From a virus: a stretch of 24,873 nucleotides of DNA. Below the pieces are notes generated by a model, which was not told where the DNA came from, did no database searches, and worked only from the letters and a program-made list of their open reading frames with translations. Of this stretch, positions 838-23,529 are shown piece by piece (within the stretch, counting starts at the first letter, position 1; each line of letters begins with the position of its first letter). The position numbers were made by a program, and so were the translations under genes. Location: UHGV virus genome UHGV-0240820. One strand, given 5' to 3'.

Positions 838-842
838 CATGG

Positions 843-862
843 TACTATTACCACAACGGTAA
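843..862 (+). promoter_or_regulatory. -10-like TACTAT abutting dyad TTACCACAACGGTAA (848-862); candidate late promoter/operator
   Basis: Same hexamer-plus-dyad arrangement as at 21184-21203 on the minus strand. Lies 18 bp upstream of the terminase small subunit start. No good -35 element. Confidence 0.4.
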
Positions 863-879
863 CTATTACCACGGTGGTT

Positions 880-1476
880 ATGATGCCTGCTGAACCTAAA
901 ACCTATAAACGCAAATCAACGCAATTTAAGCCACTAACAGCAATGCAGGAGGCTTATTGCCAGTCATACATCAAAACGCCTGAAAACCAGACTCAGGCAG
1001 CGATTAACGCAGGATTCTCCCCAAATACAGCGGCAGTTAAAGCCAGTCTCATGATGCGCGATGAACGCATTCAAAAACGGATTGCCGAGCTGATGGAAGA
1101 GCGCAACAAACGAATGCGCGTCAGTGCTGATTACGTTCTCATGCGCCTGGTGGAGATCGACCAGATGGACGTGATCGACATCCTCAACGACGATGGGAGC
1201 CTTAAGCCAATCCGCGAGTGGCCGAAAATCTGGCGCACTACGCTTAGTGGCTTTGATCTGTCATCGACCATCATGAACATGAACGAGGATTCGATAGAGA
1301 CAATCCTCAAAAAAATTAAATGGCCTGACAAGGTGAAGAACCTCGAACTGATTGGTAAGCACGTCGACGTCAACGCATTCAAAGAACGCCTGGATGTTAA
1401 TGTGAATGTGACAATTGCTGATCGCATAGCGGCAGCCAGGAAGAGACTGAAAGAACGTCAGGATGGCAATCAGTGA
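880..1476 (+). CDS. terminase small subunit
   Basis: Position immediately upstream of, and overlapping (GTGA), the large subunit. Sequence resembles small-terminase families (from memory). Start placed at ATG 880 (or 883, GGTGG at 873-877); the ORF-track start at 802 is rejected because it spans the terminator and the direct repeat. Confidence 0.7.
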   Translation: MMPAEPKTYKRKSTQFKPLTAMQEAYCQSYIKTPENQTQAAINAGFSPNTAAVKASLMMRDERIQKRIAELMEERNKRMRVSADYVLMRLVEIDQMDVIDILNDDGSLKPIREWPKIWRTTLSGFDLSSTIMNMNEDSIETILKKIKWPDKVKNLELIGKHVDVNAFKERLDVNVNVTIADRIAAARKRLKERQDGNQ

Positions 1477-2948
1477 CAGATACAGCGTTATCTCCTGAAG
1501 AGCAGTTAATCGAGGATATTGCAGGGTTCACTCACGATCCGCTTGGCTATGCCCTCTATGCGTTCCCATGGGGGGAAGAGGGGACTGAACTGGCACATGC
1601 CACCGGCCCACGTCAGTGGCAGGCTGATGCGTTCCGAGAGATACGTGATCACCTGCAGAATCCAGAGACGCGCTATCAGCCGCTTATGCTGGCACGCGCT
1701 TCTGGTCACGGTATTGGTAAATCCGCATTCATCTCAATGCTGATCAACTGGGGCATGTCCACTTGCGAGGATTGTAAGGTCGTGGTGACCGCCAACACCG
1801 ACAACCAGCTACGAACGAAGACCTGGCCGGAAATTATCAAGTGGTCGAACCTTGCTATCACGAAAGACTGGTTTACCTGTACCGCTACCGCGATGTACAG
1901 CAATGACCTAGGGCACGACAAGCGGTGGCGGGCTGACGCAATACCCTGGTCTGAGCACAACACCGAGGCATTCGCCGGACTACACAACGAGCGCAAACGC
2001 ATCATCGTGGTGTTTGATGAAGCGTCGAACATTGCGGATCTGGTGTGGGAAGTTGCCGAGGGTGCGCTTACGGACGAAGACACTGAGATTATTTGGGTGG
2101 CGTTCGGAAACCCTACACGTAACACCGGGCGTTTTCGCGAATGTTTCCGCAAATATAAACACCGCTGGAAAACTGCGCAGATTGACAGCCGGACGGTGGA
2201 AGGCACCAACAAACAGCAGTTGCAGAAATGGGTTGATGACTACGGGGAAGATAGCGACTTCGTTAAAATCCGTGTGCGTGGCATATTCCCTGATGCATCT
2301 GAATTGCAGTTTATCCCTACCGGTCTTACTGACGAGGCAATGAAACGGGTGGTAACCGCTGCGCAGGTTGCACATGCTCCGGTGATAATCGGTGTTGACC
2401 CGGCATATTCAGGCGTTGATGACGCGGTGATATACCTGCGGCAGGGGCTACACAGTAAGGTGCTGTGGACTGGCAACAAGACTACCGACGATCTGATTAT
2501 GGCGAAGCGTATCGCTGACTTTGAAGACCAGTATCAGGCTGACGCGGTGTTCATCGACTTCGGTTACGGAACCGGTTTGAAGTCAATCGGTGACGGCTGG
2601 GGTCGTACATGGCAACTTGTTCCGTTCGGTGGCGCGTCTACTGACCCGCAGATGCTCAACAAGCGTGGGGAGATGTTCAACTCATGCAAGACATGGCTGA
2701 GGCTCGGCGGCATGCTGGATGACCAGGAAACAGCGGACGACCTGTCGACGGCAGAGTACAAAGTTCGCGTGGACGGTAAAATCGTTATCGAACCGAAGGA
2801 AGATATCAAGGAGCGGCTTGGGCGTTCTCCTGGTAAAGGCGATGCGCTACTGCTGACGTTTGCGTTCCCTGTGTCGAAGCGTCTGCGAATTCCCGGGCAG
2901 CAGAACCAGCAAGGCAAGGCCATCACAGATTACGATCCATATGCTTAA
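1473..2948 (+). CDS. terminase large subunit (ATPase + nuclease)
   Basis: 491 aa. Walker A-like GHGIGKS, Walker B-like VVFDEAS, and an RNaseH-like nuclease region (IGVDPAYSG...DDAV). GTG start overlaps the upstream stop. Confidence 0.9.
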   Translation: MTDTALSPEEQLIEDIAGFTHDPLGYALYAFPWGEEGTELAHATGPRQWQADAFREIRDHLQNPETRYQPLMLARASGHGIGKSAFISMLINWGMSTCEDCKVVVTANTDNQLRTKTWPEIIKWSNLAITKDWFTCTATAMYSNDLGHDKRWRADAIPWSEHNTEAFAGLHNERKRIIVVFDEASNIADLVWEVAEGALTDEDTEIIWVAFGNPTRNTGRFRECFRKYKHRWKTAQIDSRTVEGTNKQQLQKWVDDYGEDSDFVKIRVRGIFPDASELQFIPTGLTDEAMKRVVTAAQVAHAPVIIGVDPAYSGVDDAVIYLRQGLHSKVLWTGNKTTDDLIMAKRIADFEDQYQADAVFIDFGYGTGLKSIGDGWGRTWQLVPFGGASTDPQMLNKRGEMFNSCKTWLRLGGMLDDQETADDLSTAEYKVRVDGKIVIEPKEDIKERLGRSPGKGDALLLTFAFPVSKRLRIPGQQNQQGKAITDYDPYA

Positions 2949-2998
2949 TCCGCTGGTGGGGATAATGTCGTTGATATCCTCTGATGAGGATAAAACAA

Positions 2999-3025
2999 AG
3001 CCAGCTCATCGGCTGGCTGTTTGTG
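2999..3025 (+). terminator. weak terminator-like hairpin after the terminase large subunit
   Basis: AGCCAGC (2999-3005), loop TCATCG, GCTGGCT (3012-3018), then GTTTGTG. The T tract is poor. Confidence 0.35.
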
Positions 3026-3034
3026 ACATGTCAC
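3023..3034. repeat. palindrome GTGACATGTCAC (second copy)
   Basis: Exact 12-bp match to the core of the 757-770 palindrome. Confidence 0.6.
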
Positions 3035-3038
3035 GGCG

Positions 3039-3461
3039 TTAGAAGGTTATTTTATCGAATGCGGCGTTGATTGCCTTGGCGTCCTGCTCAGCACCAACCA
3101 CATCAAGTAAAGATCTTTTACTAAGCACTTCAGCCAGGCATTGTAACTTCATGTTGTATAAGTTTTCGCGCATGTAATCATCATCACTTTTTTCTTTGGC
3201 GTATACAGCGCGAGAAATATCAAACACATTGCCTTTTTCCATTTCAGTTTTCTGCGCTGAAATCCAGTCATGGCAAGTAACTCCTATTCCATGGTCATCG
3301 CTAAGCGTTAACCCGGCAAGTCGCTCACCTGGAATTGCTTCACAAAGCATTTCATTTCCTGCAAAAACACCATAAAAAATTGAATCATCACCCTGAACAA
3401 TGCGTACATATTTGCACGGCCATTCATTTAGATATTTAGCTAGCATGTCGGCTGTTTTCAT
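3039..3461 (-). CDS. hypothetical protein (140 aa), reverse-oriented moron
   Basis: Clean ORF with AAGGTGA 4 nt upstream of the ATG on the minus strand. Convergent with the terminase genes. No recognisable motif. Confidence 0.55.
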   Translation of the reverse strand: MKTADMLAKYLNEWPCKYVRIVQGDDSIFYGVFAGNEMLCEAIPGERLAGLTLSDDHGIGVTCHDWISAQKTEMEKGNVFDISRAVYAKEKSDDDYMRENLYNMKLQCLAEVLSKRSLLDVVGAEQDAKAINAAFDKITF

Positions 3462-3471
3462 GATCTCACCT

Positions 3472-3496
3472 TAAAAAAATGCCCGGCGAACCGGGC
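3472..3496 (-). terminator. intrinsic terminator (minus strand)
   Basis: On the minus strand: GCCCGG, loop TTCG, CCGGGC, followed by a T7 run (plus-strand A-run 3473-3479). Confidence 0.7.
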
Positions 3497-3659
3497 GAAC
3501 TGGAAGCAATGAGTTATGCCTTCCGTGGCTGTACTGGTTTACAGCATGAAGCCATCGCAATGGCGCCCTGCTGTAAAAAGGGCGGTGATAGTCCTTCAAG
3601 GGAAACCATCACCGCCAAGCCCCTGGAACTTCTGGCATCACGGTCCTTAGGCGTGATTC

Positions 3660-3736
3660 TGGCGTGGCATGCAGGATTCGAACCTGCGACCAACCGCTTA
3701 GAAGGCGGTTGCTCTGTCCAACTGAGCTAATGCCAC
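3660..3736 (-). tRNA. tRNA-Arg (anticodon UCU)
   Basis: Minus-strand 77-nt cloverleaf: acceptor GTGGCAT/ATGCCAC, D stem GCTC/GAGC, anticodon stem ACCGC/GCGGT with loop CTTCTAA, T arm GCAGG-TTCGAAT-CCTGC, discriminator G, encoded CCA. Differs from host argU at several positions (from memory), so it is phage-encoded. Confidence 0.85.
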
Positions 3737-4058
3737 AACGCTGAGAGCACTTAGCCTGTTAAGGCGCCACACTTTGTCGCGGCTCCATAAATGCTCTCAT
3801 CGTTGTACCCTCGTCTCTTCCGAGGCGTCACACCGAATCGCCGGGATGGTGAATCCCCGTGCGCGGAATAAAACCGCTCGACTTGCACATTCCGGCTACC
3901 TGGTTCGTTTGCCACAGCCAGGGAGGGTGCCCCTTAAACGCATCCAGACCGCTATCGGCGCATGTGCCATACGCCGTACTGCTCAAAATAAAAGCTCACT
4001 CCACCTGTTCAATTTAACGACAAGCCAGTCAGGTTAGTAACCGGAATGAACTCTTTGG

Positions 4059-4073
4059 TTACCTGAAAGGTAA
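4059..4073. promoter_or_regulatory. dyad TTACCTGAAAGGTAA (operator-like)
   Basis: One of six TTACC-N5-GGTAA sites; intergenic. Confidence 0.45.
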
Positions 4074-4163
4074 TAATTCGCGCATTAAATGTCAACTGTC
4101 TACGATAAATAAATCATATGTGGTTAAATTGGTAATAATTTAATTGCGTACGGAGTCATTGAT

Positions 4164-4370
4164 ATGTGCATGGGTAGCTCACCATCAGTGCCTGCAACAC
4201 CAGAAGTTCAGGCAGCACCACAGGAGCAGGATGCCGCCGTTGTTGATGCCCGCGACGAAGAAACTCGTCGCCGTCGCGCTGCTGCTGGTCGTAGTTCTAC
4301 GCTGCTTACCGGTTCTCAGGGCGACACATCAACTGCTAATACCAGCGGTAAAACGCTGCTTGGTCAGTAA
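4164..4370 (+). CDS. hypothetical small protein (68 aa)
   Basis: ATG preceded by CGGAGTCATTGA, a 12-nt string identical to the portal translation-initiation region at 4372-4383. Low-complexity Ala/Arg-rich product, so coding status is uncertain. Confidence 0.35.
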   Translation: MCMGSSPSVPATPEVQAAPQEQDAAVVDARDEETRRRRAAAGRSSTLLTGSQGDTSTANTSGKTLLGQ

Positions 4371-4384
4371 CCGGAGTCATTGAA

Positions 4385-6064
4385 ATGGCGGAAACAACTA
4401 AAGAGCGATTGAACAAACAGTTCGCACAACTTGAAAGCGAGCGTCAGTCGTTCGAGCCGCACTGGCGCGAGTTGAGTGATTACATCAACCCGCGTGGTTC
4501 CCGCTTTCTGACTTCTGAGGTTAACCGTAACGATCGACGCAATACACGCATTATTGATTCGACCGGGACTATGGCGGCGCGCACTCTCGCCAGCGGCATG
4601 ATGTCAGGCATCACAAGCCCCGCGCGTCCGTGGTTTCGCCTGGCTACGCCAGATCCTGAAATGATGGATTATGGCCCTGTTAAGTTGTGGCTTGAGGCGG
4701 TGCAGAACCGCATGAACGATATGTTCAATAAGTCGAATCTCTATCAGTCGCTGCCGCAGTTATACGGAAGCCTCGGCACATACAGCACTGGTGCAATGGC
4801 AGTGCTGGAGGATGACGAGGACATCATTCGCACAATGCCATTCCCGATAGGCAGTTACTACCTGGCTAACTCACCTCGTGGCAGTGTGGACACCTGTTTT
4901 CGCAAGTTCTCTATGACTGTTCGTCAGCTTGTTCAGGAGTTCGGGCTAAATAACGTCAGCGAATCCGTAAAAAGCATGTGGGAAAGCGGAACCTACGAGA
5001 AGTGGATTGAAGTGATGCATTCGGTTTACCCGAACATTGACCGCGATACATCGAAGCTGGATAGCAAGAACAAGCCATTCAAATCGGTTTATTACGAGGT
5101 TGGTGGCGATAACGACAAGTTGTTGCGTGAGTCCGGATTCGATGAGTTTCCAATTATGGCTCCGCGCTGGGAAGTTAACGGCGAAGATGTTTATGGATCA
5201 TCATGCCCGGGTATGCTGGCGCTTGGACCTGTTAAGGCATTGCAGCTTCTCCAGAAGCGCAAGTCGCAGTTGATTGATAAAGCCACCAATCCGCCGATGG
5301 TTGCTCCGACTTCCCTCAAGAATCAGCGCGCCTCCCTTCTTCCTGGCGACATCACGTATATCGATCAGATTACTGGTCAGGATGGTTTCAGGCCTGCTTA
5401 TCTGGTTAACCCCAGTACAGCAGATTTGGTGGCAGACATTCAGGACACTCGTCAAATCATTAACAGCGCCTACTTTGTCGATCTGTTCATGATGTTGCAG
5501 AACATCAATACCCGCTCGATGCCTGTTGAAGCGGTGATCGAAATGAAAGAAGAAAAACTTCTGATGTTGGGGCCGGTTCTGGAGCGTCTGAACGACGAAT
5601 GTCTTAATCCTCTCATTGACCGCTCTTTCTCGATGATGGTGCGTAAAAACATGCTGCCGCCACCGCCTGACGCGATGGAAGGCATGCCCCTGAAGGTCGA
5701 ATACATTTCCGTCATGGCTCAGGCGCAGAAGTCTATCGGCCTGTCCAGTCTGGCGTCCACGGTTAACTTCATTGGTCAACTTGCGCAAGCGAAACCAGAA
5801 GCTCTCGACAAACTCAACGTTGATCAGGCGATCGATGCATTCGCTGATATGTCCGGAGTGTCTCCAACCGTCATTGTTCCGCAGGAACAGGTTGAGCAGG
5901 CTCGCCAGCAACGGGCACAGCAACAACAGCAGCAACAAATGATGGCGATGGGGATGGCGGCGGCACAGGGTGCCAAGACGCTAAGCGAAGCTAAAACTTC
6001 GGATCCGAGTGTTTTGTCAGCTATGGCGAATGCAGTTAGTGGTCAGGGTGGGCAATCACAATGA
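4385..6064 (+). CDS. portal protein (podovirus type)
   Basis: 559 aa, located after the terminase genes. Gln/Met/Ala-rich C-terminal tail (QQRAQQQQQQQMMAMGMAAAQGA) resembles the T7 gp8 C-terminus as I recall it. Confidence 0.85.
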   Translation: MAETTKERLNKQFAQLESERQSFEPHWRELSDYINPRGSRFLTSEVNRNDRRNTRIIDSTGTMAARTLASGMMSGITSPARPWFRLATPDPEMMDYGPVKLWLEAVQNRMNDMFNKSNLYQSLPQLYGSLGTYSTGAMAVLEDDEDIIRTMPFPIGSYYLANSPRGSVDTCFRKFSMTVRQLVQEFGLNNVSESVKSMWESGTYEKWIEVMHSVYPNIDRDTSKLDSKNKPFKSVYYEVGGDNDKLLRESGFDEFPIMAPRWEVNGEDVYGSSCPGMLALGPVKALQLLQKRKSQLIDKATNPPMVAPTSLKNQRASLLPGDITYIDQITGQDGFRPAYLVNPSTADLVADIQDTRQIINSAYFVDLFMMLQNINTRSMPVEAVIEMKEEKLLMLGPVLERLNDECLNPLIDRSFSMMVRKNMLPPPPDAMEGMPLKVEYISVMAQAQKSIGLSSLASTVNFIGQLAQAKPEALDKLNVDQAIDAFADMSGVSPTVIVPQEQVEQARQQRAQQQQQQQMMAMGMAAAQGAKTLSEAKTSDPSVLSAMANAVSGQGGQSQ

Positions 6065-6357
6065 CAGATTACGAAGACGATCAACTGAAAGAAGAAAACG
6101 CCCGTAAGCAACGTGACATGGCACAGCGTGAAATTGATGACATTTGCTTTGTCATGAGCAGTGAACAGGGGCGTCGCGTTGTCTGGTCGGTGCTGGAGAA
6201 AGGCCGTGTGTTTTCCGCTATCTCACCGATGGACGCTATGGCAATGGCATTTAATGAGGGGCAACGCAATCTGGCGCTGGAACTGTTTCAGCGCGTTATG
6301 GCGCATTGCCCTGAACAGTATTTGAAGATGGCCAAAGAGGCCAGTGAACAGGAGTGA
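6061..6357 (+). CDS. hypothetical protein (98 aa) between portal and scaffold
   Basis: ATGA overlap with the portal stop; acidic, helical-looking. Confidence 0.55.
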   Translation: MTDYEDDQLKEENARKQRDMAQREIDDICFVMSSEQGRRVVWSVLEKGRVFSAISPMDAMAMAFNEGQRNLALELFQRVMAHCPEQYLKMAKEASEQE

Positions 6358-6359
6358 TC

Positions 6360-7055
6360 ATGAATTTATTTGAGCGTTTGCTGTATCGCCGTCTTTGCAA
6401 TGAGCAACCAGTCGATGGTGGAGCAGCTCCGGCTGCGTCAGAACCGTCAGCGCCTACAGGTGATAACCCTGCTCCAGTTGGTGATCCATCACAACAGGAA
6501 GGTGATAAGCCACAACCTGTTGCTGATGTCGATAAACCTGATGATGAAAAAAAATCTGAAAACGATAAGCAGGGTGAAAAAAAGGACGGCGATAAACCAG
6601 AGGGTGCGCCTGAAAAGTACGAGTTTCAGGCTGCCGAAGGCGTAGAGCTGGATACAGAAGCGTTGAAGGAATTCGAGCCGGTGGCGCGAGAACTAAACCT
6701 GACCAACGAGCAAGCGCAAAAGCTGGTTGATGCTTATCCGAAGATTCTGGCAGGTGTTCAGCAGCGCCAGGCAGAAGCCTGGCAGAAAACAACCGAGCAG
6801 TGGGCAGCGGATGTAAAAGCCGACAAAGAAATCGGTGGCGACAAGTTGATTTCTAACCTTAGCGCCGCACAGCGTGCGCTTGACCAGTTCGGGACACCTG
6901 AACTCAAAGAATATCTGAACACCACCGGGCTGGGTAATCACCCTGATCTGGTCAAAACGTTCGTGAAAATCGGAAAGGCGATGTCTGAAGATGGCATGGT
7001 CACCGGTGGTAATGAAGGCCAGCGTAGTGCGGCCGAAGTGCTCTATGGCAAATAA
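6360..7055 (+). CDS. scaffolding protein
   Basis: Highly acidic, Pro/Asp/Glu/Lys-rich N-terminal half and helical C-terminal half, immediately upstream of the capsid gene. Start placed at ATG 6360 (GGAG 6351-6354), not the GTG at 6354. Confidence 0.65.
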   Translation: MNLFERLLYRRLCNEQPVDGGAAPAASEPSAPTGDNPAPVGDPSQQEGDKPQPVADVDKPDDEKKSENDKQGEKKDGDKPEGAPEKYEFQAAEGVELDTEALKEFEPVARELNLTNEQAQKLVDAYPKILAGVQQRQAEAWQKTTEQWAADVKADKEIGGDKLISNLSAAQRALDQFGTPELKEYLNTTGLGNHPDLVKTFVKIGKAMSEDGMVTGGNEGQRSAAEVLYGK

Positions 7056-7069
7056 GAGAGGAAATGACA

Positions 7070-8056
7070 ATGGCTGTTAAAGGCTTAACTGCGCTAACGC
7101 TGGCTGACTGGGGTAAGCGCGTCGATCCAAACGGGAAAGTCGATAAGATTATCGAGCTTCTCGGTCAAACTAACCCGATCCTTCAGGATATGCCTTTTGT
7201 CGAAGGGAACCTTCCTACCGGACACCGAACCACCATTCGTTCTGGTTTACCTTCAGCTACCTGGCGTTTGCTGAACTATGGCGTACAGCCAAGCAAATCA
7301 ACCACAGTGCAGGTAACCGATTCCGTTGGCATGCTGGAAACCTATGCGGAAGTCGATAAGTCACTGGCTGATCTGAACGGCAATACCGCCGAATTCCGCC
7401 TGTCTGAAGACCGCGCATTTATTGAAGCGATGAATCAGCAGATGGCGCAGACGCTGTTTTATGGTGATTCCAGCGTTAACCCTCAGCAGTTTATGGGACT
7501 GTCCTCCCGCTATTCCAGCCTGTCTGCGGGTAATGCTCAGAACATCATTGATGCTGGTGGCACGGGTACAGATAACACCTCAATCTGGTTAGTGGTGTGG
7601 GGCGAAAACACCGTGCATGGCATCTTCCCGAAAGGGAAGAAGGCTGGCATCCAGATGGAAGATAAAGGCCAGGTGACACTGGAAGATGCTAATGGCGGCA
7701 AGTACGAAGGTTATCGCACCCATTACAAATGGGACAACGGACTTGCTCTGCGTGACTGGCGTTATGTTGTTCGCATTGCAAACATCGATGTCAGCAATCT
7801 TTCAGAACCATCCTCTGCCGCAAATATTGCCAAGTTGATGGTTAAGGCACTGCATCGCATTCCAAACCGTGGCATGGGCCGCCCGGTGTTCTACATGAAC
7901 CGCACTGTAGGCCAGGCTCTTGATCTGCAATCTCTGGAGAAAACATCTCTGGCTATCAGCGTAAAAGAGACTGAAGGCGAGTGGTGGACTTCATTCCGTG
8001 GTGTACCAATCCGTGAAACTGATGCGCTTCTGGAAACAGAAGCCCGCGTGGTGTAA
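7070..8056 (+). CDS. major capsid protein
   Basis: ~328 aa, after the scaffold gene and before a hairpin. Start placed at ATG 7070 (GAGG 7058-7061 at 8 nt spacing); alternative ATG at 7064. Confidence 0.75.
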   Translation: MAVKGLTALTLADWGKRVDPNGKVDKIIELLGQTNPILQDMPFVEGNLPTGHRTTIRSGLPSATWRLLNYGVQPSKSTTVQVTDSVGMLETYAEVDKSLADLNGNTAEFRLSEDRAFIEAMNQQMAQTLFYGDSSVNPQQFMGLSSRYSSLSAGNAQNIIDAGGTGTDNTSIWLVVWGENTVHGIFPKGKKAGIQMEDKGQVTLEDANGGKYEGYRTHYKWDNGLALRDWRYVVRIANIDVSNLSEPSSAANIAKLMVKALHRIPNRGMGRPVFYMNRTVGQALDLQSLEKTSLAISVKETEGEWWTSFRGVPIRETDALLETEARVV

Positions 8057-8107
8057 CGCCTGTTATTAACCTGTGGGTCGTAACAGACCCACTAATGGAG
8101 AAAGAAG

Positions 8108-8545: not shown

Positions 8546-8555
8546 GGTGATATCG

Positions 8556-8891: not shown

Positions 8892-8908
8892 GCCTCGCGA
8901 ATCAGACA

Positions 8909-8931
8909 AGGGGCTTCGGCCCCTTTATTGC
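8909..8931 (+). terminator. intrinsic terminator after the capsid gene block
   Basis: AAGGGGC (8909-8915), loop TTCG, GCCCCTT (8920-8926), followed by TTTATTG. Confidence 0.7.
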
Positions 8932-8947
8932 AGGAGTATAGAAACTT

Positions 8948-15801: not shown

Positions 15802-18800
15802 TGCCGATATATGAACAGGATCCTAAAGAGTTGCTTGGCGAGGATATTCAGCAAATAGCAGCACCTGATGACAGTAATTTCTATATGGAAACACCTTCTT
15901 TGCTTTCTGCTGTGAACCCATTTACCAGTGATCAACGCGTTCAAAGGTCTAGACAAGCAGCATTTCGTATAGATAACACGCTGGGTAGCTTTATTGCCAG
16001 TGCTCCTTTCAGTCAGTTTGACAGGGTTGAAGGATATAACCCATTTGATAACGATGCAGCAGATATTAAAGGCTATGAAGATTTTGCAGATTCGTTTATC
16101 AACTCCGGTTCGCCTGAAGAAACAATGGCAATTAAACATCGAATCGATCAGCAGAGAGCTGACATGGAATACAATTCAGGCTTGGGATTTGCTGGTACAG
16201 TCTCTTCTGTAGCAATGAGATTAGCAGATCCATTCAATGCGATTTCTATGTTTATTCCGTTCGGCGCTGTCGTTCGTGGCGGTCGTATTGCAGAAACAGC
16301 CGGGCGTTTTGCCCTGGCGAATGCTGCTGGCAGTGTTGCTTCAGAGGCCGCATTACAGGCCACTCAGGAAGCTCGCTCAGCGATGGAGAGCGTATCGAAC
16401 GTTGTTGTTGATGCTCTCGTTGGTGGGATCCTTGGTGCTGGTGCACAGCTACTTGCTGGACCTGGCGCGCGCGAGGCAGTGGTTAACTCAGTAGGTAATC
16501 ATTTGCGAGGTATGGATTCTCCTCAAAGCATTGGTGCAGCTCAGGTTTTCAATACCACACTCGATCAGGAACAGCTCGCTGGACTTGGACTTGCTAACAA
16601 AACGTTGAGTGTCACTCCTGCTGGCCGCTTGGCGCAATCACCATCTCTTGTCTCCCGTCAGATTAACCAGCAGCTTGCCGAAAATAACTATTTCTTCGCC
16701 AAAAATGATGAGGGGTTGGCTACGTTTACGGCAGTCGAGACTAAGATTAAGCAATACGACGCCATGCTTTATAAGCAGATGGAAGCCACTCGTGATGCTT
16801 ACCAGCAGTACAGCAAATCTGTTAGCGCCCGCGGCGTGAAGAGGATGAACTTTATTGATTTCAATGAAGCTGTTGGCATGGCTATGCGCCGTGGTGATCA
16901 GAGTGATATTCCTGAGGTTTCACAAGCAGCCGCCAGAATCCGCCCCATTTTCGAGACCACAAAAGCCCGTATGCAGGAACTGGGGATCCTTCCTAAGGAT
17001 ATCGATGTCGTGACGGCGAAAAGTTATCTTCCCCGCATTTATAAGTTCGATAAGATACTTTCCGACCGCACTGAATTCAGAGGGCGAATTGCCAACTGGA
17101 TACAAGGGATTAGTGCCAAAGGTGCTGACAAAGCAGGTCAGCGAATTGAAAGGATAAATTCATTGCTAAAAACTGCAGAGGAATCGGCACCGCGCGCTGA
17201 TGCTCTCGCTAGTGAAATCGCTGAAGCGGAGAAATGGTCTGGTAAAAAAATTCTACTCATGGAAGAACTGGATAAACGAAATAAGCTTATATCTCAGGAG
17301 ACTGACACACAGGCGCGTCTTACAAGAATAGAAAAAGAGTTGGCCGAGACTTCATCAGAAAAACTTCAGGCAAGAATGATGAAAGAAAGCTCTGACCTTA
17401 AAACACGCCTTGATGATATAGCGCAGGCAAAGAGTGAGCTTCCTGTCTATCAGCGCCATATGGAGTTGTTGGATAATCCACGGAAATATCGTTCTGAGCT
17501 TCGCCGACTGCAAAAACGGGCAAATTCAACCACAAGGCTGAATGCAAGCCGCGAACGAGCACTGAAGCAGATGGAGCCTCTATCCCGAGAGGAAGCAGAG
17601 GACGCTGCTGACGAGATCGTGAATAAAATAATAGGCGCACCTTCCGGGCTTGTACCAGCCGATATTATCCCAGAGAGACTCGTTGGTCGGGCTGGTTTCA
17701 CTAAAAGCAGAACGCTGCTTATTCCTGATGAGCGTATAGAAGATTTTCTTGAATCAGATGTTAACTACATCATGGAAAGTTATCTCCGGCAGGTGGCACC
17801 AGAAATTGAGCTGACTGCGCAGTTTGGCCGTAAAGATATGGGGGAGCAAATCCGTCAGGTTAGTGAGGAATATACCCGGCTAATAAAAGAGGCTAAAACA
17901 CCTAAACGACGTGCAGTTCTTGAGAAGCAACGGGCGGCTGATATTAGGGATATTACGGCTATGCGTGATCGACTGCTTGGTACTTACGGTGCACCTCAAG
18001 ATCCACGCAGTTTCTTTGTTCGTGCCGGGCGAGTTGCTAGGAATATTAACTTCCTCCGTTTGCTTGGTGGAATGACCGTCTCCGCTGCAACTGATCTGAT
18101 GCGACCGATGATGCAGCATGGCCTGAGAAAATCTCTCGGACCAATGGTAAGCATGCTTAAAAATATGGACTCAGTGAAGATTGCAACCAGGGATTTGCGA
18201 GAAATGGCCGTTGGGCTTGATTATGTCCTGTCTACGCGTACAAAGGCTATAGCGGATCTTACTGACCCATATAGCCGGAGAAGCGCCGCTGAGCGAGGCC
18301 TGAACTGGATGACGCAGAAATTCGGTAACTGGACGCTGATGAATCAGTGGAACAGCGCACTTAAATCATGGTCTGGGATGATAGTGCAGTCGAGGATACT
18401 TGACGCGGCTCGCCAAGTTTCTGCTGGTGGCACGCTCTCCAAAAGTGAAATGCGGAAGATGGCACAGGTCGGCATCAATGAAGATGTTCTGCGCCGAATC
18501 GGGGAGCAATTCGGGAAGCACGGAGAGGATATGGACGGGCTGTTAACCGGGCATAGTCATCTGTGGGATGACCGTTTCGCTAGAGAGATTTTCCAGTCTG
18601 CAGTGCTGAAAGATGTAGACTCAGTGATTGTAACGCCTGGCGTAGGTGATACACCGCTGTTTTTTAGTAAAGAAGGCTGGAAGATGATCACGCAGTTCAA
18701 AACGTTTATCTTCGCACAGCATAACAGGGTGCTGGTATCTGGTATCCAGCAGGGCGATGCTGCATTCTATCTTGGTGCGCTTGGCACGATTGCGCTTGGC

Positions 18801-19190
18801 TCAATGGTCTATATGATGAAACAGAAGTTAAGCGGTCGCGATATTGACTACAGCTGGAATAACCTTGTGAAAGAGGGGATCGACCGGGGCGGAATGCTTG
18901 GCTGGCTCTCTGAGCCGCTGAATACCGTTGAGAACATAAGCGGTGGTAGGTTTGGTCTTGGCGCGATGTTTGGTGCGCCTCCGGTATCAAGGTTTCAGAG
19001 TCGTAATGCTATTGGTGCTTTACTTGGTCCTACCTTTGATCTTGGCGGTGATGCCGCGACGGTTGCGAATGGTGTACTTAACGGAGAATTTGACAGCCAG
19101 CAAACCCACGCGGTCCGTAAAATGCTACCTTTTCAGAACCTGTGGGCGATATCACCATTACTAAATAAAGTTGAAGAGCAGATGAAATAG
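15801..19190 (+). CDS. internal virion (core/ejection) protein D-like (gp16 position)
   Basis: 1129 aa, coupled (TAATG). Gly/Ala-rich segment near residues 120-200 resembles a T7 gp16 segment as recalled; no N-terminal transglycosylase motif seen. Confidence 0.55.
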   Translation: MPIYEQDPKELLGEDIQQIAAPDDSNFYMETPSLLSAVNPFTSDQRVQRSRQAAFRIDNTLGSFIASAPFSQFDRVEGYNPFDNDAADIKGYEDFADSFINSGSPEETMAIKHRIDQQRADMEYNSGLGFAGTVSSVAMRLADPFNAISMFIPFGAVVRGGRIAETAGRFALANAAGSVASEAALQATQEARSAMESVSNVVVDALVGGILGAGAQLLAGPGAREAVVNSVGNHLRGMDSPQSIGAAQVFNTTLDQEQLAGLGLANKTLSVTPAGRLAQSPSLVSRQINQQLAENNYFFAKNDEGLATFTAVETKIKQYDAMLYKQMEATRDAYQQYSKSVSARGVKRMNFIDFNEAVGMAMRRGDQSDIPEVSQAAARIRPIFETTKARMQELGILPKDIDVVTAKSYLPRIYKFDKILSDRTEFRGRIANWIQGISAKGADKAGQRIERINSLLKTAEESAPRADALASEIAEAEKWSGKKILLMEELDKRNKLISQETDTQARLTRIEKELAETSSEKLQARMMKESSDLKTRLDDIAQAKSELPVYQRHMELLDNPRKYRSELRRLQKRANSTTRLNASRERALKQMEPLSREEAEDAADEIVNKIIGAPSGLVPADIIPERLVGRAGFTKSRTLLIPDERIEDFLESDVNYIMESYLRQVAPEIELTAQFGRKDMGEQIRQVSEEYTRLIKEAKTPKRRAVLEKQRAADIRDITAMRDRLLGTYGAPQDPRSFFVRAGRVARNINFLRLLGGMTVSAATDLMRPMMQHGLRKSLGPMVSMLKNMDSVKIATRDLREMAVGLDYVLSTRTKAIADLTDPYSRRSAAERGLNWMTQKFGNWTLMNQWNSALKSWSGMIVQSRILDAARQVSAGGTLSKSEMRKMAQVGINEDVLRRIGEQFGKHGEDMDGLLTGHSHLWDDRFAREIFQSAVLKDVDSVIVTPGVGDTPLFFSKEGWKMITQFKTFIFAQHNRVLVSGIQQGDAAFYLGALGTIALGSMVYMMKQKLSGRDIDYSWNNLVKEGIDRGGMLGWLSEPLNTVENISGGRFGLGAMFGAPPVSRFQSRNAIGALLGPTFDLGGDAATVANGVLNGEFDSQQTHAVRKMLPFQNLWAISPLLNKVEEQMK

Positions 19191-19191
19191 G

Positions 19192-20043
19192 ATGAAAAAA
19201 ATAAATTTGTTTTTTGGCATAGTGCTTTCAATAGTCTCTGTAAATCCTACAGCTGCCAGTTCATTGCAATGCAATAAGGATAACTTTGATGCATGCAAAA
19301 CGTGTGAACAATTATCAAAGGCTATCGACTTAAAAGAACCTAATCGTGGCGATTACTATAGAGGGGCTTTATGGAATGGGCTTTACGCCTCTTATGTAAT
19401 TAATTGCCCTGTGGTTGCTGAGAAGTTACTGAGCCATGGTGCTATACCATCATATGGCGGATATATGGGGTCTATGGGGGCGGTTCTGACAGGAAAATGG
19501 CCTCATAACAATGAATCAATAAATCTTTCATGGGCAGATTTGCTTATAAAACATGGATTTGATGTTAATAGGCATACGGGGAATTATAAATCAGCTACTG
19601 AAGTATGGGCTATAGATAAAAAACAGATTGAATATAAGTCAGTTTTTGACAAGTTAATTCAATCCAGCGAAGTAAAACCACTCGATCCTTCAAGAAATTT
19701 AGAATGGTGTGCGTCTGAAGGGTATCGCTCAGTTGTCGTTTATTCCCTTAACTCATGTATAGAAAATGCTATAAAACGTTTGGATGATGGTGTTTCTTCA
19801 GCGTCTGATATTTCATCAGCAGCCGTAAATTCCTGTACTAGCGATGTAGAAAATTTCAATAAGCATTTGGCATGCAAAGCAGCTGTTAAAGAAAACTCTG
19901 ATAAAGAGAGAAGCGACGTTTACCAGTTATTAACCAGTGATAGTCAAATGAATAAAAATGTTATTGATATGCTGAAGGAAAGAAATATTGAAACGGTTCT
20001 TGAATTTAGAGCTGAAAATCGATCAGCGAAAACTGCACAGTGA
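19192..20043 (+). CDS. secreted protein of unknown function (283 aa, AT-rich moron)
   Basis: N-terminal signal peptide (MKKINLFFGIVLSIVSVNPTAAS), about 10 Cys, AT-rich codon usage unlike the structural genes. Start is 1 nt after the gp16-like stop. Confidence 0.6.
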   Translation: MKKINLFFGIVLSIVSVNPTAASSLQCNKDNFDACKTCEQLSKAIDLKEPNRGDYYRGALWNGLYASYVINCPVVAEKLLSHGAIPSYGGYMGSMGAVLTGKWPHNNESINLSWADLLIKHGFDVNRHTGNYKSATEVWAIDKKQIEYKSVFDKLIQSSEVKPLDPSRNLEWCASEGYRSVVVYSLNSCIENAIKRLDDGVSSASDISSAAVNSCTSDVENFNKHLACKAAVKENSDKERSDVYQLLTSDSQMNKNVIDMLKERNIETVLEFRAENRSAKTAQ

Positions 20044-20049
20044 TCAAAC

Positions 20050-20074
20050 AGGCCGCTTTCGCGGCCTTGTTTTT
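20050..20074 (+). terminator. intrinsic terminator
   Basis: AGGCCGC, loop TTTC, GCGGCCT, followed by TGTTTTT. Confidence 0.75.
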
Positions 20075-20234
20075 AACGAATGCCACCGCCGCCCGGGCGG
20101 GAATCCGCAGAACGCCCACCGCAGCGGGAGCCGTCAGCAGCAGTGTCGCTGTCGTGCTGACAACGACCGGCAAAGGCCTGAGTTGAAGCTACCAGAGACA
20201 ACAAAACGAACAGTGCAGCAAATGCTTTTTTCAT
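20073..20234 (-). CDS. small exported peptide candidate (53 aa)
   Basis: Internal Met of ORF 20073-20306 starts a classic signal peptide (MKKAFAALFVLLSLVASTQAFAG) followed by a 30-aa Gly/Arg/Asp-rich tail with 2 Cys. GC-rich, in contrast to its flanks. Confidence 0.35.
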   Translation of the reverse strand: MKKAFAALFVLLSLVASTQAFAGRCQHDSDTAADGSRCGGRSADSRPGGGGIR

Positions 20235-20315
20235 TGTGAAATTTCCATCTATAAGCCACCTCAATGTGGCGTCAATGAGTGTAGCACTGACTTTTGTTTC
20301 GTCCATAAAAAACTA

Positions 20316-20828
20316 CTATGCAGGCTTTTTGGATTTGTACGAATAATCCCACGGATAAACATTTCTACTAAGTGGAGCTGTATTCGTTCGTTCATGAAAT
20401 AATTTTGTGAAATTCAATACGGAATCCATCCAAACTTTTGCGTTAGCTTTGGTGTGTGCGGGCGGGTCCCAATAAGCTAGTAAGGCTGCATCTCTTATTT
20501 CATTGACTGCATATATGAGATATGCGTTACTGGTTGGTTTTGGCCTGTAATTTCCTTGTTCATCAATCAATCCATATGACCACTCATCCCAACACTGTTC
20601 AGTACATGAGTATGAATATGATGCATATTCACCAATATTGACATGAACCTTTCTGAGATGGAAGCCTAATACTTCGTCTGGTCTTTCAAAAAGAGTATCT
20701 TTTCCCAGATCAGGATGATGACCATGACGCCAGTGTTGTTTAAAAGCATCTTTTAGCGAAATCAGAAAGTCATCAGTTTTAAACTCACCAGTAGGTATAA
20801 CCTTCCCGCTATACTCACTCAAAAACAT
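20316..20828 (-). CDS. hypothetical protein (170 aa); candidate toxin/effector of a two-gene module
   Basis: Strong RBS (AGAGGA at 5 nt spacing). His cluster (HWRHGHH) and a Cys/Trp-rich segment (YSCTEQCWDEW). Start overlaps the upstream gene's 3' end by 14 nt. AT-rich. Confidence 0.55.
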   Translation of the reverse strand: MFLSEYSGKVIPTGEFKTDDFLISLKDAFKQHWRHGHHPDLGKDTLFERPDEVLGFHLRKVHVNIGEYASYSYSCTEQCWDEWSYGLIDEQGNYRPKPTSNAYLIYAVNEIRDAALLAYWDPPAHTKANAKVWMDSVLNFTKLFHERTNTAPLSRNVYPWDYSYKSKKPA

Positions 20829-21141
20829 CGAATTCCTCTTCCTTCATATGCGTTTCTAATGAGTTAAGCTGGCGGAAAGATATCTCTTTTGATTCTGCAG
20901 ATGAGAGCTTTTTTATCCGCTTGATATTCTTTGTGATAGGAATAGACATTGTATGCACATCAGCGGATGCTCTTGGCTTTGTGCTGATAAAAATATGGCG
21001 CAATGCCGCATTTTCACTATTGAACGAGCCAATAGCTGATTTACGTGCTACAACCTTACCAGTAAAAATACGACTCTTGCTACGCTTTGCATGAGTTCCG
21101 CTTCTTACCGGACCTCTCATCACGAATCCAAGTTTTGTCAT
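20815..21141 (-). CDS. hypothetical basic protein (108 aa); candidate partner (antitoxin/regulator?)
   Basis: GGAG RBS. Arg/Lys-rich N-terminal half and acidic C-terminus (HMKEEEFDVFE). First gene of the overlapping pair. Confidence 0.5.
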   Translation of the reverse strand: MTKLGFVMRGPVRSGTHAKRSKSRIFTGKVVARKSAIGSFNSENAALRHIFISTKPRASADVHTMSIPITKNIKRIKKLSSAESKEISFRQLNSLETHMKEEEFDVFE

Positions 21142-21183
21142 CTTTAATCTCCGGTAAGTTACAGGTATAAAATAAAAACAGGT

Positions 21184-21226
21184 TTACCTTTAAGGTAATA
21201 GTACGCTATTCACCCCCGGTCTGCAA
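21184..21226 (-). promoter_or_regulatory. candidate sigma70 promoter with overlapping operator dyad
   Basis: Minus strand: -35 TTGCAG (21221-21226), 17-bp spacer, -10 TACTAT (21198-21203), overlapping dyad TTACCTTTAAGGTAA (21184-21198) by 1 bp. Confidence 0.45.
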
Positions 21227-21270
21227 TCTGTACAGAATTATTTAAAGGCACATCCCTGTGCCGCCGCCCG

Positions 21271-21927
21271 TCAGAAGAACCCTGCTTTGTCGTTGATGTA
21301 CTCCGCGTGCGTCTGGATATCACGCAGGCATTTGCTCACACCGACGATGTAGCAGAACATGGTGGTCAGTTCCGCCGCCGCGCCCGATACGTCGTGCCCG
21401 TCTTCCTGTAACTGGTTCAGCAGATTCATCAGCAGTGAGTTCTCCGTCAGGCCGAGAACACCAGACGGAGAATGAATCAGGCTGCGGTAGCCGGGCTTCA
21501 GCGGGGCACTGTATTCTTTTTTGTCTTCCAGCTTGATCGCCTCCATAATGGCGGGCATGAAGCCTGACAAGACCTTCTCCACTTTTGTTTCTTGTTGTCT
21601 TAAACGTTTCTCGCATTCAATGAAGTAGCGTCGCACCTGGCGACCTTTTTCGTTACGCTCGACCATCGCCAGCTCTTTGGCTGTATCAAGGGTGAGGTGG
21701 TACTCTTTGCGGTTGTGGCCGCCTCTACCAGATGTTTGCTTTCCCAAATTGGAAAGCAAAATATAGTCTTGATTTTCAATGAATTCGTATTCTGATATGC
21801 GATTTGTAATCCATGCTGCAAACACCTTTTTAACACCTAAAAAAGCGTGCAGATCGCGGGCATTACAAAGTAGGGCTGTTTCGTTAGATATAGTGCCGTT
21901 GAATACGGGGATGAGTTGAGCGTTCAT
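21271..21927 (-). CDS. phage antirepressor (AntA/Bro-N-type N-terminal domain plus C-terminal domain)
   Basis: N-terminal sequence ([12 protein letters not shown]...[32 protein letters not shown]) matches the conserved AntA-type antirepressor domain as I recall it. GGAG RBS. C-terminal 80 aa are paralogous to ORF 23077-23334. Confidence 0.75.
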
Positions 21928-22085
21928 GATGGCGTCTCCACTTAGCGAATTACATCACCACCGCTGAGACCAATCAGATGGTGGTGAACTGAACGGAGTT
22001 GGTCTTACCGGCCTAAGTGGTACCGGCGTCCTTTCGGACCCCCATTCAGCCCACCATAATTCTGGCATGACTGTGCTATACGCAT

Positions 22086-22108
22086 AAAAAAACCACGTCT
22101 GGCGTGGT
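22086..22108 (-). terminator. intrinsic terminator-like element (minus strand)
   Basis: On the minus strand: stem ACCACG/CGTGGT (22092-22097 / 22103-22108) followed by a T7 run (plus-strand A-run 22086-22092). Confidence 0.5.
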
Positions 22109-22200
22109 ATGCGCCACTTAGTAATCCGGGAGACCAATCCCGGCACTGGATTTTGCCAGTGCCCGATTACTATGGCACAAGAGGAGTGCGATGTAAATTT
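22086..22200 (-). ncRNA. structured non-coding leader or sRNA candidate
   Basis: No ATG on the minus strand across 22086-22200. Hairpins at 22126-22143 (6 bp) and 22142-22163 (8 bp) share two nucleotides. Ends in a terminator-like hairpin. Confidence 0.3.
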
Positions 22201-22213
22201 ACCGCAAAGGTAA
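22199..22213. promoter_or_regulatory. dyad TTACCGCAAAGGTAA (operator-like)
   Basis: On the minus strand a -10-like TATCAT overlaps the dyad by 1 bp, with TTGATT 17 bp upstream as a candidate -35. Confidence 0.45.
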
Positions 22214-22291
22214 TGATAAGCGCGAATAAATATCAAAATCAACCGTATTTGGTTGATGGAGTTTAATGCTTGATCACCTGAAAGCAAGATA

Positions 22292-22306
22292 TTACCTTTA
22301 AGGTAA
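22292..22306. promoter_or_regulatory. dyad TTACCTTTAAGGTAA (operator-like)
   Basis: Identical to the 21184 site; 21 bp upstream of the ATG of the 242-aa gene; preceded on the plus strand by AGATAT. Confidence 0.45.
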
Positions 22307-22326
22307 TGTTATTGTGAGGAAAAGCA

Positions 22327-23055
22327 ATGGAAGTTTTCTGGATAGTTGTTGGTGTGGTTGCGGTGATTATTTACGTTATCAACCAGAACAAGACTAAGAT
22401 CTCTGATCGTACGGTCGTTAATCATAACAAAACGATAAAGACCGAAGATGGGGAGATAACGATTAATCGTACACAGGTGATAGAACACACCTCTACTCAG
22501 TTTCAAAAAACTGGAGGTAATGCGCCTAATATTTCCGCACCTCCTGCTTATGATAGTGCGGTAATCCAGACATATTATAAACAGCAGGAGTTAGCAAAAG
22601 AGAGGCAACTGATTCAGCCAAAGCCATTTACAGCAGAGCTTCCACATGGAGTGTCAACGCGTCCGGCATATCATGGAAGATTCCCTGGTGATGACACATC
22701 GTCTCAGTCACCTAAAAAAGCACCTCAGGCAGTATCAGAGCCAGCAAGAATACCTTCTGTATCGCCGTCAAAAGAAGAATCAGCTAACGAAGTTTCAAGT
22801 GCCCGCAAGCAGTGTTTGCGATGCAGAATAACCCTTCCATATGAAAAATTCAGGAAATCGTCAAAAAATCCAGATGGATTGACTAAGTGGTGTGCAAGGT
22901 GTCTCGATGGCCCAAAGAATACACGCCATATGAAGTGGTGCCCAATTTGTAATGTCCGCAGAAAACGAACCAGTTTTTACCCTAATAATCAAAATGCGGA
23001 TGGCTTAATGGCATGGTGCAAAACGTGCTGGGACGAGCACAAAGCGAAACGATAG
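22327..23055 (+). CDS. membrane-anchored protein with C-terminal tandem zinc-ribbon-like repeats (242 aa)
   Basis: N-terminal TM helix (FWIVVGVVAVIIYVI), Pro/Ser/Gln-rich linker, then two repeats of C-x2-C ... DGL ... WC-x2-C. GAGGA RBS. AT-rich. Followed by a terminator. Confidence 0.6.
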   Translation: MEVFWIVVGVVAVIIYVINQNKTKISDRTVVNHNKTIKTEDGEITINRTQVIEHTSTQFQKTGGNAPNISAPPAYDSAVIQTYYKQQELAKERQLIQPKPFTAELPHGVSTRPAYHGRFPGDDTSSQSPKKAPQAVSEPARIPSVSPSKEESANEVSSARKQCLRCRITLPYEKFRKSSKNPDGLTKWCARCLDGPKNTRHMKWCPICNVRRKRTSFYPNNQNADGLMAWCKTCWDEHKAKR

Positions 23056-23079
23056 GCCGCTCTTGCGGCCTTTTCTTTA
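23054..23079 (+). terminator. intrinsic terminator
   Basis: AGGCCGC, loop TCTT, GCGGCCT, followed by TTTCTTTAT; nearly identical to the terminator at 20050-20074. Confidence 0.7.
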
Positions 23080-23334
23080 TCTGGTTTGCTTTCGTAATTG
23101 TTCGGCACAATAGTCGAGATGTGTTTGCAGATCCTGCATAGACATCTGTGAGCTGGTGACGTAGTTAATCAGTGCAGTCAGTTCGGCAAGTGGGCCATCG
23201 ACATTAAATCCATCCTTATCGAGATCCCGGAGTAATTTCATCAAGTGCGATCCCTCCACCAGTGACCTGACGCCTCCCGGCGTGTGAATCCTTTCGGTAA
23301 ATCCGTCTTCCAGTGGATAGTGATACTGCTGCAT
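23077..23334 (-). CDS. stand-alone antirepressor C-terminal-domain paralog (85 aa)
   Basis: About 50% identical by eye to the C-terminal 80 aa of the antirepressor at 21271-21927. Start placed at the internal ATG 23334 (GGAGAAG RBS); the longer ORF to 23457 lacks an RBS and spans the operator dyad. Confidence 0.5.
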   Translation of the reverse strand: MQQYHYPLEDGFTERIHTPGGVRSLVEGSHLMKLLRDLDKDGFNVDGPLAELTALINYVTSSQMSMQDLQTHLDYCAEQLRKQTR

Positions 23335-23410
23335 CTTATCTTCTCCATGCAATAACTGTATGTTTATACAGTAACAAATAATTTGTTTGCTATCCAGCAC
23401 GTTTTGCAAA

Positions 23411-23425
23411 TTACCCGAAAGGTAA
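23411..23425. promoter_or_regulatory. dyad TTACCCGAAAGGTAA (operator-like)
   Basis: Lies between the divergent antirepressor-paralog and tail-spike starts. Confidence 0.45.
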
Positions 23426-23529
23426 TATCTATTGGTATTTATAGTCTTTTTATCCATATATGGTTTTTCAGGTAATAGAATAACCAGATATGCGGCGCAA
23501 CGGGTGCTGCGACTATCTGGAGATTTAAC

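Follow-up and report, generated by a model that had tools for sequence, protein, structure and literature searches.

Intergenic TTACC-N5-GGTAA dyads in an ε15-like Escherichia coli prophage as very probable operators of its lysogeny repressor Rep

The 24,873-nucleotide virus sequence UHGV-0240820 (hereafter the window, meaning the whole stretch of DNA analysed) carries between its genes several copies of an inverted repeat, TTACC-N5-GGTAA, which raises the question of what protein reads this element and what it controls. The window covers the half of an ε15-like podophage prophage (Uetakevirus) of Escherichia coli that runs from terS to the tailspike gene, and from sequence comparison we infer that the dyads are, with high likelihood, operators physically bound by the lysogeny repressor of the prophage itself, Rep. 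A pattern search returned exactly six perfect dyads, position by position those of the original prediction, made from the sequence of the window. That prediction had added that more copies may exist, and a mismatch-tolerant search found one that it had missed, with a single mismatch, 18 base pairs (bp) past the site at 848. The putative Rep operators of the window are the following:

848-862: dyad TTACCACAACGGTAA, upstream of terS (ATG at 883); ortholog of the ε15 'protein_bind repressor' feature at 12-27
866-880: degenerate dyad TTACCACGGTGGTTA, with 1 mismatch, ending 2 bp before the terS ATG
4059-4073: dyad TTACCTGAAAGGTAA, flanked by a tRNA-Arg unit read leftward and the gp3/portal late operon read rightward; ortholog of the ε15 'repressor' feature at 2931-2947
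21184-21198: dyad TTACCTTTAAGGTAA, upstream of a leftward two-gene cassette (20316-21141); also present in the prophage of E. coli N10 (L005, 37020)
22199-22213: dyad TTACCGCAAAGGTAA, over the predicted start of the leftward isrK/C4-AntA transcription unit
22292-22306: dyad TTACCTTTAAGGTAA, 21 bp upstream of a zinc-ribbon gene (22327-23055)
23411-23425: dyad TTACCCGAAAGGTAA, in the divergent ant/tailspike control region; ortholog of the ε15 'repressor' feature at 19895-19911

By chance, 0.03 exact dyads would be expected in the window, and six or more appeared in not one of 100 dinucleotide-preserving shuffles. Using a gene model that combines the list of open reading frames, a tRNA scan and the annotation of close relatives, 1784 of the 24873 bases (7.2%) are intergenic. 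All seven dyads lie in this fraction (P = 1.4e-7 for six out of six by chance), which agrees with the claim that every site is intergenic, given a terS start at the ATG at 883. The original prediction had named two observations that would speak against a regulatory element, namely an equal frequency of the motif inside coding regions and its absence from related prophages. Neither is the case: the coding DNA of the window holds no exact and no one-mismatch copies, and dyads are present in every relative examined.

Over 26 distinct sites from 4 genomes, the real consensus is a 17-bp palindrome, A-TTACC-nnWnn-GGTAA-T, with an A/T-rich spacer. The arms are invariant, the loop is variable and compensatory changes are absent. 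Judged by this sequence of the Uetakevirus Rep operator, the window has six exact sites and one near-exact site, and its only intergenic GGTAAT half-sites outside the dyads are the two within the late boxes described below. The dyads do not fit the LexA consensus CTGT-N8-ACAG.

The element is not new, as it is the known Uetakevirus Rep operator already annotated in phage ε15. The RefSeq record of this phage (NC_004775) contains seven features labelled 'protein_bind / repressor / lysogeny' (12-27, 2931-2947, 19895-19911, 32479-32494, 32554-32570, 32616-32632 and 35906-35922), and all seven coincide with TTACC-N5-GGTAA matches. According to alignments, the first three are positional orthologs of the window sites 848, 4059 and 23411; they precede terS, precede gp3/portal, and lie between gp19 and the tailspike gene, respectively. 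Over most of its length the window is 97-98% identical to Escherichia phages EC.W1-9, TL-2011b, phiv142-3 and phiV10; for Enterobacter phage Tyrion and Salmonella phage ε15 the identity is about 77-81%. The nearest complete prophage found is that of E. coli N10, inserted at the 3' end of guaA. A full-text literature search did not find the motif string. For phage vB_EcoP_ZX5, the effects of overexpressing the repressor and the antirepressor have been shown, with the operator left undefined (PMC9782041).

We scanned six complete relatives with E. coli, Salmonella, Enterobacter and Klebsiella hosts: ε15, phiV10, the N10 prophage, SPC32H, Tyrion and a Klebsiella Uetakevirus. Each contains 13 to 18 sites with at most one mismatch, against 0.5-0.8 expected. 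In all six, the rep gene is bracketed by two or three sites immediately on each side, resembling left and right operator (OL/OR) clusters. The remaining sites precede terS, gp3/portal, the tailspike, lysis and int genes or form a pair in the replication region, with fixed arms and differing spacers. All exact sites are intergenic in ε15 (11), phiV10 (8, assuming the shorter terS start for its site at 87), SPC32H (10) and the Klebsiella phage (9).

The original prediction identified no repressor gene in the window and suggested looking for a small helix-turn-helix or ribbon-helix-helix gene elsewhere in the prophage. The rep gene is indeed absent from the window; in the relatives it is flanked by dyads, and in the N10 prophage it lies about 5-5.6 kilobases (kb) to the left of the position equivalent to the window start. 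The N10 protein (194 amino acids, of the phiV10 type; L005 8927-9511, minus strand) matches the structure of SPC32H Rep (5D50_A in the Protein Data Bank, PDB) with E=4e-42. Phage records show no member of the Rep family outside Uetakevirus, bar one weak partial match in a Pseudomonas phage. Its four types are about 43-78% identical and share an invariant NLVNRW (residues 36-41, in the predicted recognition helix of the N-terminal helix-turn-helix), which matches the invariant half-site. The Rep of the window, as judged from relatives, would be of the phiV10 type, about 42% identical to the ε15 and SPC32H proteins.

The same association was seen in a scan of IMG/VR with the motif only (two dyads 62 bp apart, without protein information), which yielded at least 120 loci, most of them on contigs around 40 kb in length. 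A Rep homolog was present in 90 of 120 loci among the matches listed, and the nearest dyad lay a median of 60 bp, and a maximum of 101 bp, from the rep open reading frame. The ε15 annotation, the bracketing of rep in relatives and this co-occurrence (90 of 120 among the matches listed) support the predicted operator shared by a repressor that the window does not encode. Four of the IMG/VR loci (L023, L034, L064 and L116) show 4-6 dyads 18-45 bp apart, with no Rep homolog found in the stretch examined; they may be truncated loci or represent a different operator architecture.

Paired sites recur at distances of 62, 93 or 125 bp, or about 5.9, 8.9 and 11.9 helical turns. The 62-bp spacing is that of the OL pairs and the replication-region pair in most genomes compared, and the 93-bp spacing that of the window sites 22199 and 22292. 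Since these distances are close to whole helical turns, they fit a repressor with two DNA-binding units, and we infer that one tetramer may bind the two sites of a pair cooperatively. Plus-strand spacers look A-rich, but a directional, 'stoperator'-like orientation gave no consistent rule and was dropped: in phiV10 the spacer of the AntA-leader site is reversed with respect to that gene, and the OL sites are T-rich.

Regarding the promoters, five sites overlap plausible σ70 promoters, and to that extent the claim that the dyads stand at the promoters of several units holds; the site at 23411 does not. Also as predicted, a -10-like hexamer overlaps the dyad by exactly 1 bp at three sites: TACTAT at 848 (plus strand), TACTAT at 21184 (minus strand) and TATCAT at 22199 (minus strand). 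At terS, the hexamer belongs to an extended -10, TGgTACTAT (840-848, plus strand), whose final T is the first T of the dyad. The dyad and TGnTACTAT are kept in all seven phages compared at terS, and tandem dyads like those at 848 and 866 are also found in phiV10, N10, EC.W1-9, Tyrion and ε15. Together the two dyads would span roughly -7 to +26 and stop just short of the terS ATG.

The start of terS differs between records. Those of phiV10 and N10 in RefSeq use an upstream TTG (window 802), giving the open reading frames L003 41-715 and L005 15319-15993, respectively, and this start would place 848 and 866 within the coding sequence. The records of ε15, SPC32H, Tyrion and EC.W1-9, as well as metagenome gene calls, use the ATG at 883 (197 amino acids). 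A terminator hairpin at 811-828, upstream of the extended -10, falls inside the TTG-initiated frame, which is therefore probably wrong, and the ATG start is more likely to be the correct one. Before this terminator, at the end of the gene for a gp49-like 'transcriptional regulator', there is a perfect 14-bp palindrome, CGTGACATGTCACG, at 757-770; its core, GACATGTCACGA, is conserved in the alignment with ε15 and Tyrion.

The sites 21184, 22199 and 22292 belong to cassettes that are absent from ε15, and have orthologs in N10, EC.W1-9, phiV10 and Tyrion. The features of the first two cassettes are:

20316-21141, minus strand: two-gene cassette, with a 108-amino-acid protein (PHROG 5933) overlapping a YafO-like toxin
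21271-21927, minus strand: second antirepressor (218 amino acids), with an AntA N-terminal domain (Pfam AntA, E=4e-26) and an Ant-like C-terminal domain
21977-22061, minus strand: C4 antisense RNA (Rfam), in the leader of the AntA gene
22086-22162, minus strand: isrK-like RNA (Rfam), in the same leader

At 21184, the dyad overlaps by 1 nucleotide the -10 of a minus-strand TTGCAG-17-TACTAT. The YafO-like assignment in this cassette is weak (Pfam E=9.5e-4, below the gathering score). The N10 prophage has a second pair of 108-amino-acid and YafO-like genes in place of the zinc-ribbon gene of the window.

At 22199, the minus-strand promoter is TTGATT-18-TATCAT, again with a 1-nucleotide overlap between -10 and dyad. 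This AntA-leader dyad is conserved in five Uetakeviruses, and the overlapping -10 (TATCAT or TATTAT) is kept with it in four of the five. A transcript from 22199 would traverse the isrK RNA (67.7 bits, gathering score 50) and the C4 RNA (61.2 bits, gathering score 45) into the gene of the AntA-family antirepressor; the leader of this gene measures about 270 nucleotides and has a terminator-like hairpin at 22092-22108. A C4-family antisense RNA thus lies directly upstream of an antirepressor gene (21271-21927), as in P1 immI. The C-terminal domain of the AntA protein is 42% identical over 74 amino acids to the small antirepressor Ant of the window, and the families PHROG 450 and 15539 are common to both. 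The isrK/C4/ant cassette is also found in APSE-7 and in Yersinia phage vB_YpM_41, where it lacks the dyad and the homology begins at the isrK RNA. Because the dyad is absent from the cassette in these unrelated phages, it would belong to the regulatory system of the resident phage and not to the cassette; on this comparison, the putative operator would have been grafted onto a mobile isrK/C4/ant unit.

The third of these sites, 22292, lies 93 bp, or about 9 helical turns, from 22199. It coincides with a plus-strand TTGATC-17-TACCTT whose -10 is inside the left arm of the dyad, an architecture shared with the site at 4059.

At 4059, the dyad arm supplies the -10 of a minus-strand TTGACA-17-TACCTT, which aims leftward at the tRNA-Arg gene (3660-3736). 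The sequence TGTCAA, the reverse complement of TTGACA, is invariant near this site in seven phages in which the surroundings vary. Hence, the site most plausibly overlaps a leftward promoter toward the tRNA. The claim that it controls the tRNA unit is plausible on this ground and needs a refinement, as the site is also exactly 56 bp upstream of the late box of the portal/capsid operon. The tRNA-Arg(TCT) gene (3660-3736, minus strand) is overlapped on the other strand by an open reading frame of 83 amino acids (3479-3730, plus strand), which is annotated in phiV10 and EC.W1-9 as a hypothetical protein but is probably not a real gene.

The two late boxes of the window are:

4115-4137, plus strand: late box CATATGTGGTTAAATTGGTAATA, 56 bp downstream of the dyad at 4059 (start to start), upstream of the portal/capsid operon
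23455-23477, plus strand: late box CATATATGGTTTTTCAGGTAATA, 44 bp downstream of the dyad at 23411 (start to start), upstream of the tailspike gene

They share the motif CATATnTGGTT-N5-GGTAATA, with two occurrences in the window against 0.03 expected. The box is present in all seven genomes compared, where it precedes the gp3/portal and tailspike operons, and in relatives it is also found before the lysis genes. Measured from the start of the dyad to the start of the box, the distance is always 56 bp at the portal operon, 44 bp at the tailspike gene and 47 bp at the lysis genes, with intervening sequence that diverges without insertions or deletions. The 47-bp spacing at the lysis cassette was seen in four relatives, for example with the late box at 24829-24851 of L006. 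At its end, each box has a Rep half-site, GGTAAT, together with a -10-like TAATAA or TAGAAT. Before the portal gene, the dyad and the pseudo-dyad of the late box (TGGTT-N5-GGTAA) are 62 bp apart centre to centre, as in true operator pairs.

The late box is probably a late promoter or an activator site. A σ54-type reading (TGG...N...GG) was ruled out by the misfit of the -12 element. A Rep tetramer might conceivably bridge the full dyad and the late-box half-site and so silence the late promoters by short-range looping, although we hold this to be rather unlikely. More broadly, each of the pairs at 62, 93 and 125 bp may be held by a single tetramer. If true, the whole set of transcription units of the prophage, among them the acquired accessory cassettes, would be locked directly by one repressor, with a geometry of looping undescribed for the Rep family. 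Upstream of gp3, a block of about 60 bp (4098-4163, CTACGATAAATAAATCATATGTGGTTAAATTGGTAATAATTTAATTGCGTACGGAG) hardly varies between the phages of E. coli, Salmonella and Enterobacter and is more conserved than the genes, as these phages differ by about 20% in their coding regions.

The dyad at 23411 is conserved in seven phages, with the gap to the late box constant at 44 bp. It sits between the minus-strand ant promoter and the late-promoter box of the tailspike gene; the LexA-controlled start of ant is about 55-60 bp downstream of it on one side, and the predicted start of the tailspike transcript about 65-70 bp downstream on the other. On this site the original prediction needs a correction of detail, as no convincing core promoter was found over it. 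The features on its left side are:

23077-23334, minus strand: small antirepressor Ant (85 amino acids), E=4e-47 to PDB 5D50 chain E, the 'Anti-repressor protein' of SPC32H
23356-23371, minus strand: perfect LexA box, CTGT-N8-ACAG, overlapping the predicted ant promoter

The gene at 23077-23334 had been labelled an antirepressor paralog, and its match to 5D50 chain E (E=4e-47) identifies it instead as the primary SPC32H-type Ant. Its predicted promoter on the minus strand consists of a -35 TGGATA (23391-23396), a 17-bp spacer and a -10 TACTGT (23368-23373), and the arrangement of LexA box and TGGATA-17-TACTGT is conserved in seven phages. In SPC32H, LexA reportedly represses ant, and Rep is said not to be cleaved by RecA. 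Given the Ant-like C-terminal domain of the AntA protein, the prophage is likely to encode two proteins that target Rep, one under the control of LexA and the other under that of Rep and C4. In SPC32H, tetrameric Ant disassembles the Rep tetramer, for which a 'trans' model pairs DNA-binding domains from different dimers, as summarised in PMC9638917. Beyond the late box, the tailspike gene (23530-24873) matches 'endosialidase catalytic beta-propeller domain-containing' proteins of E. coli isolates from cerebrospinal fluid and of O2:K1 avian pathogenic isolates, which suggests an ε15-like prophage specific for the K1 capsule.

From this arrangement we propose the following mechanism. Rep, a two-domain helix-turn-helix protein of the ε15 gp38 / phiV10 p40 / SPC32H Rep family, would be encoded in the immunity region, some 5-6 kb leftward of the window. 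Once lysogeny is established, it would bind the 17-bp palindrome ATTACC-N5-GGTAAT at the early promoters flanking rep, outside the window, and also at a dedicated operator before almost every other transcription unit. Within the window, the units under Rep would be terS-terL (848 and 866), the tRNA/portal control region (4059), the YafO-like cassette (21184), isrK/C4-AntA (22199), the zinc-ribbon gene (22292) and ant/tailspike (23411). At five sites the operator would lie over a σ70-type -10 or a start site, where bound Rep would occlude RNA polymerase. During an SOS response, LexA would be cleared from the box at 23356-23371 in the ant promoter and Ant would be made. Ant would then disassemble the Rep tetramer and all operators would be vacated together. 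The early, late and accessory units would be derepressed, among them the Rep-repressed gene of the AntA antirepressor, which would reinforce the switch. Both the promoter assigned to each site and the positive feedback through AntA are predictions.

Several observations weigh against the assignment of the dyads to Rep. The protein_bind features of ε15 may themselves be bioinformatic predictions. The rep gene of the window was not recovered: contigs with an exact terL end 1-4.8 kb upstream, before the immunity region, and no complete E. coli genome matches exactly (none covers at least 80% of the right end). The recognition helix of Rep and the operator are both invariant genus-wide, leaving no covariation between protein and site. 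In a simple -35/-10 scan, no convincing core promoter was found over 23411 on either strand, and the same applies to the pre-lysis sites of relatives. Relatives also have a one-mismatch site about 40 bp upstream of oac, a lysogenic-conversion gene expressed in lysogens, so not every site is a simple occluding operator.

Moreover, a co-conserved Cro-like protein could bind the same sites, and one could argue that the main binder is another conserved regulator, either this homolog of ε15 gp39 or the gp49-like 'transcriptional regulator' (window 421-726). We consider this improbable. The Cro-like gene, divergent from rep, does adjoin the OR cluster in every relative, and CI and Cro of lambdoid phages are known to use common operators. 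The gene of the gp49-like protein, which is a match to PHROG 536 'transcriptional regulator', directly precedes the terS dyads, and co-conserved proteins are indistinguishable by sequence evidence. However, loci retrieved by the motif without protein information carry a Rep homolog within about 100 bp (90 of 120 among the matches listed), the ε15 record assigns its sites to the repressor, and a repressor gene classically has such tripartite clusters to its left and right, as rep does. If Rep and Cro did share the sites, this would supplement the explanation by Rep and not replace it.

A slightly smaller probability still goes to the idea that the late-operon dyad is a positive-control or architectural site and not an occluding operator, from which a bound protein would influence the late box, 44-56 bp further on, either by aiding an activator or through a loop to GGTAAT. 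It would account for the dyad-to-box distances of 56, 44 and 47 bp, constant in all genomes examined, for the 62-bp spacing shared by true operator pairs and the pre-portal pair of dyad and pseudo-dyad, and for the failure to find a core promoter over 23411. Yet the dyad overlaps a -10 at terS, at the AntA leader, at 21184 and at PR-like promoters, which speaks for repression as its primary function. Divergent leftward promoters could be the cause of the fixed spacing instead, and no activator for the late box was identified. Finally, we regard as almost negligible the likelihood that the dyads are RNA or DNA hairpins (terminators or processing sites), or chance or duplicated sequence without a regulatory role. 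Each site is able to form a hairpin of 5-9 bp, and RNase III sites and terminators are among the features that the ε15 record places in these intergenic regions, but the hairpins are weak (-2.6 to -6.9 kcal/mol) and a U-tract is absent. This weak stability and the invariance of the arms without compensatory changes exclude a role as RNA hairpin, and invariant arms around a variable loop are the signature of sequence-specific protein recognition. Chance is excluded by the expectation of 0.03, and the sites are not simple duplications because their flanks differ.

Taken as operators of Rep, the dyads mark the window as an ε15/phiV10-type prophage that would be run by an SPC32H-style Rep/Ant switch. 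They also mark as silent in the lysogen the terminase, the tRNA/portal control region, the YafO-like pair, the second antirepressor and the zinc-ribbon gene. The accessory cassettes between the tail genes and ant carry the operator of the resident phage, which points to lytic-phase rather than lysogenic-conversion genes, and a second antirepressor under the control of Rep suggests a self-reinforcing induction switch. What is specific to the window is minor: three further operators on accessory cassettes, the putatively Rep-controlled second antirepressor, and the extension of the arrangement to an E. coli prophage with a tailspike like those annotated as endosialidases in relatives. The fixed spacing between operator and late box offers a small testable lead on late-gene control in Uetakevirus.

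Among known systems, the closest are ε15 (Kropinski et al. 2007) and SPC32H (Kim & Ryu 2013; Kim et al. 2016; PDB 5D50, 5D4Z), whose motif, ATTACC-N5-GGTAAT, is identical to that of the window. They also share with it the sites before terS, gp3/portal and the tailspike gene, as well as the families of the repressor and of the small LexA-controlled antirepressor. The window differs from them in the extra operators at 21184, 22199 and 22292, on accessory cassettes that those phages lack.

In phage P1, C1 operators are dispersed over the genome and include Op51, before immI (c4 antisense RNA, icd and ant). The window would resemble P1 in having one repressor over many scattered units, one of them a cassette of C4 antisense RNA (Rfam C4) and antirepressor. 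However, the 17-mer operators of P1 are asymmetric and have an unrelated sequence, and C1 and Rep are not related; the window has a perfect dyad as operator and, as proposed, induction via a LexA-controlled antirepressor. The relatives are like lambdoid phages (λ, 434 and P22) in their helix-turn-helix repressor and in the multiple dyads that flank its gene over divergent promoters. Lambdoid repressors act only at early promoters, with late genes silent without Q, whereas here the putative operators are also found at late and accessory units. In mycobacteriophage L5, the stoperators of gp71 occur in many copies in short intergenic gaps throughout the genome. They are asymmetric, orientation-dependent and block elongation, whereas the sites of the window are symmetric, lie mostly over promoters and show no consistent orientation.

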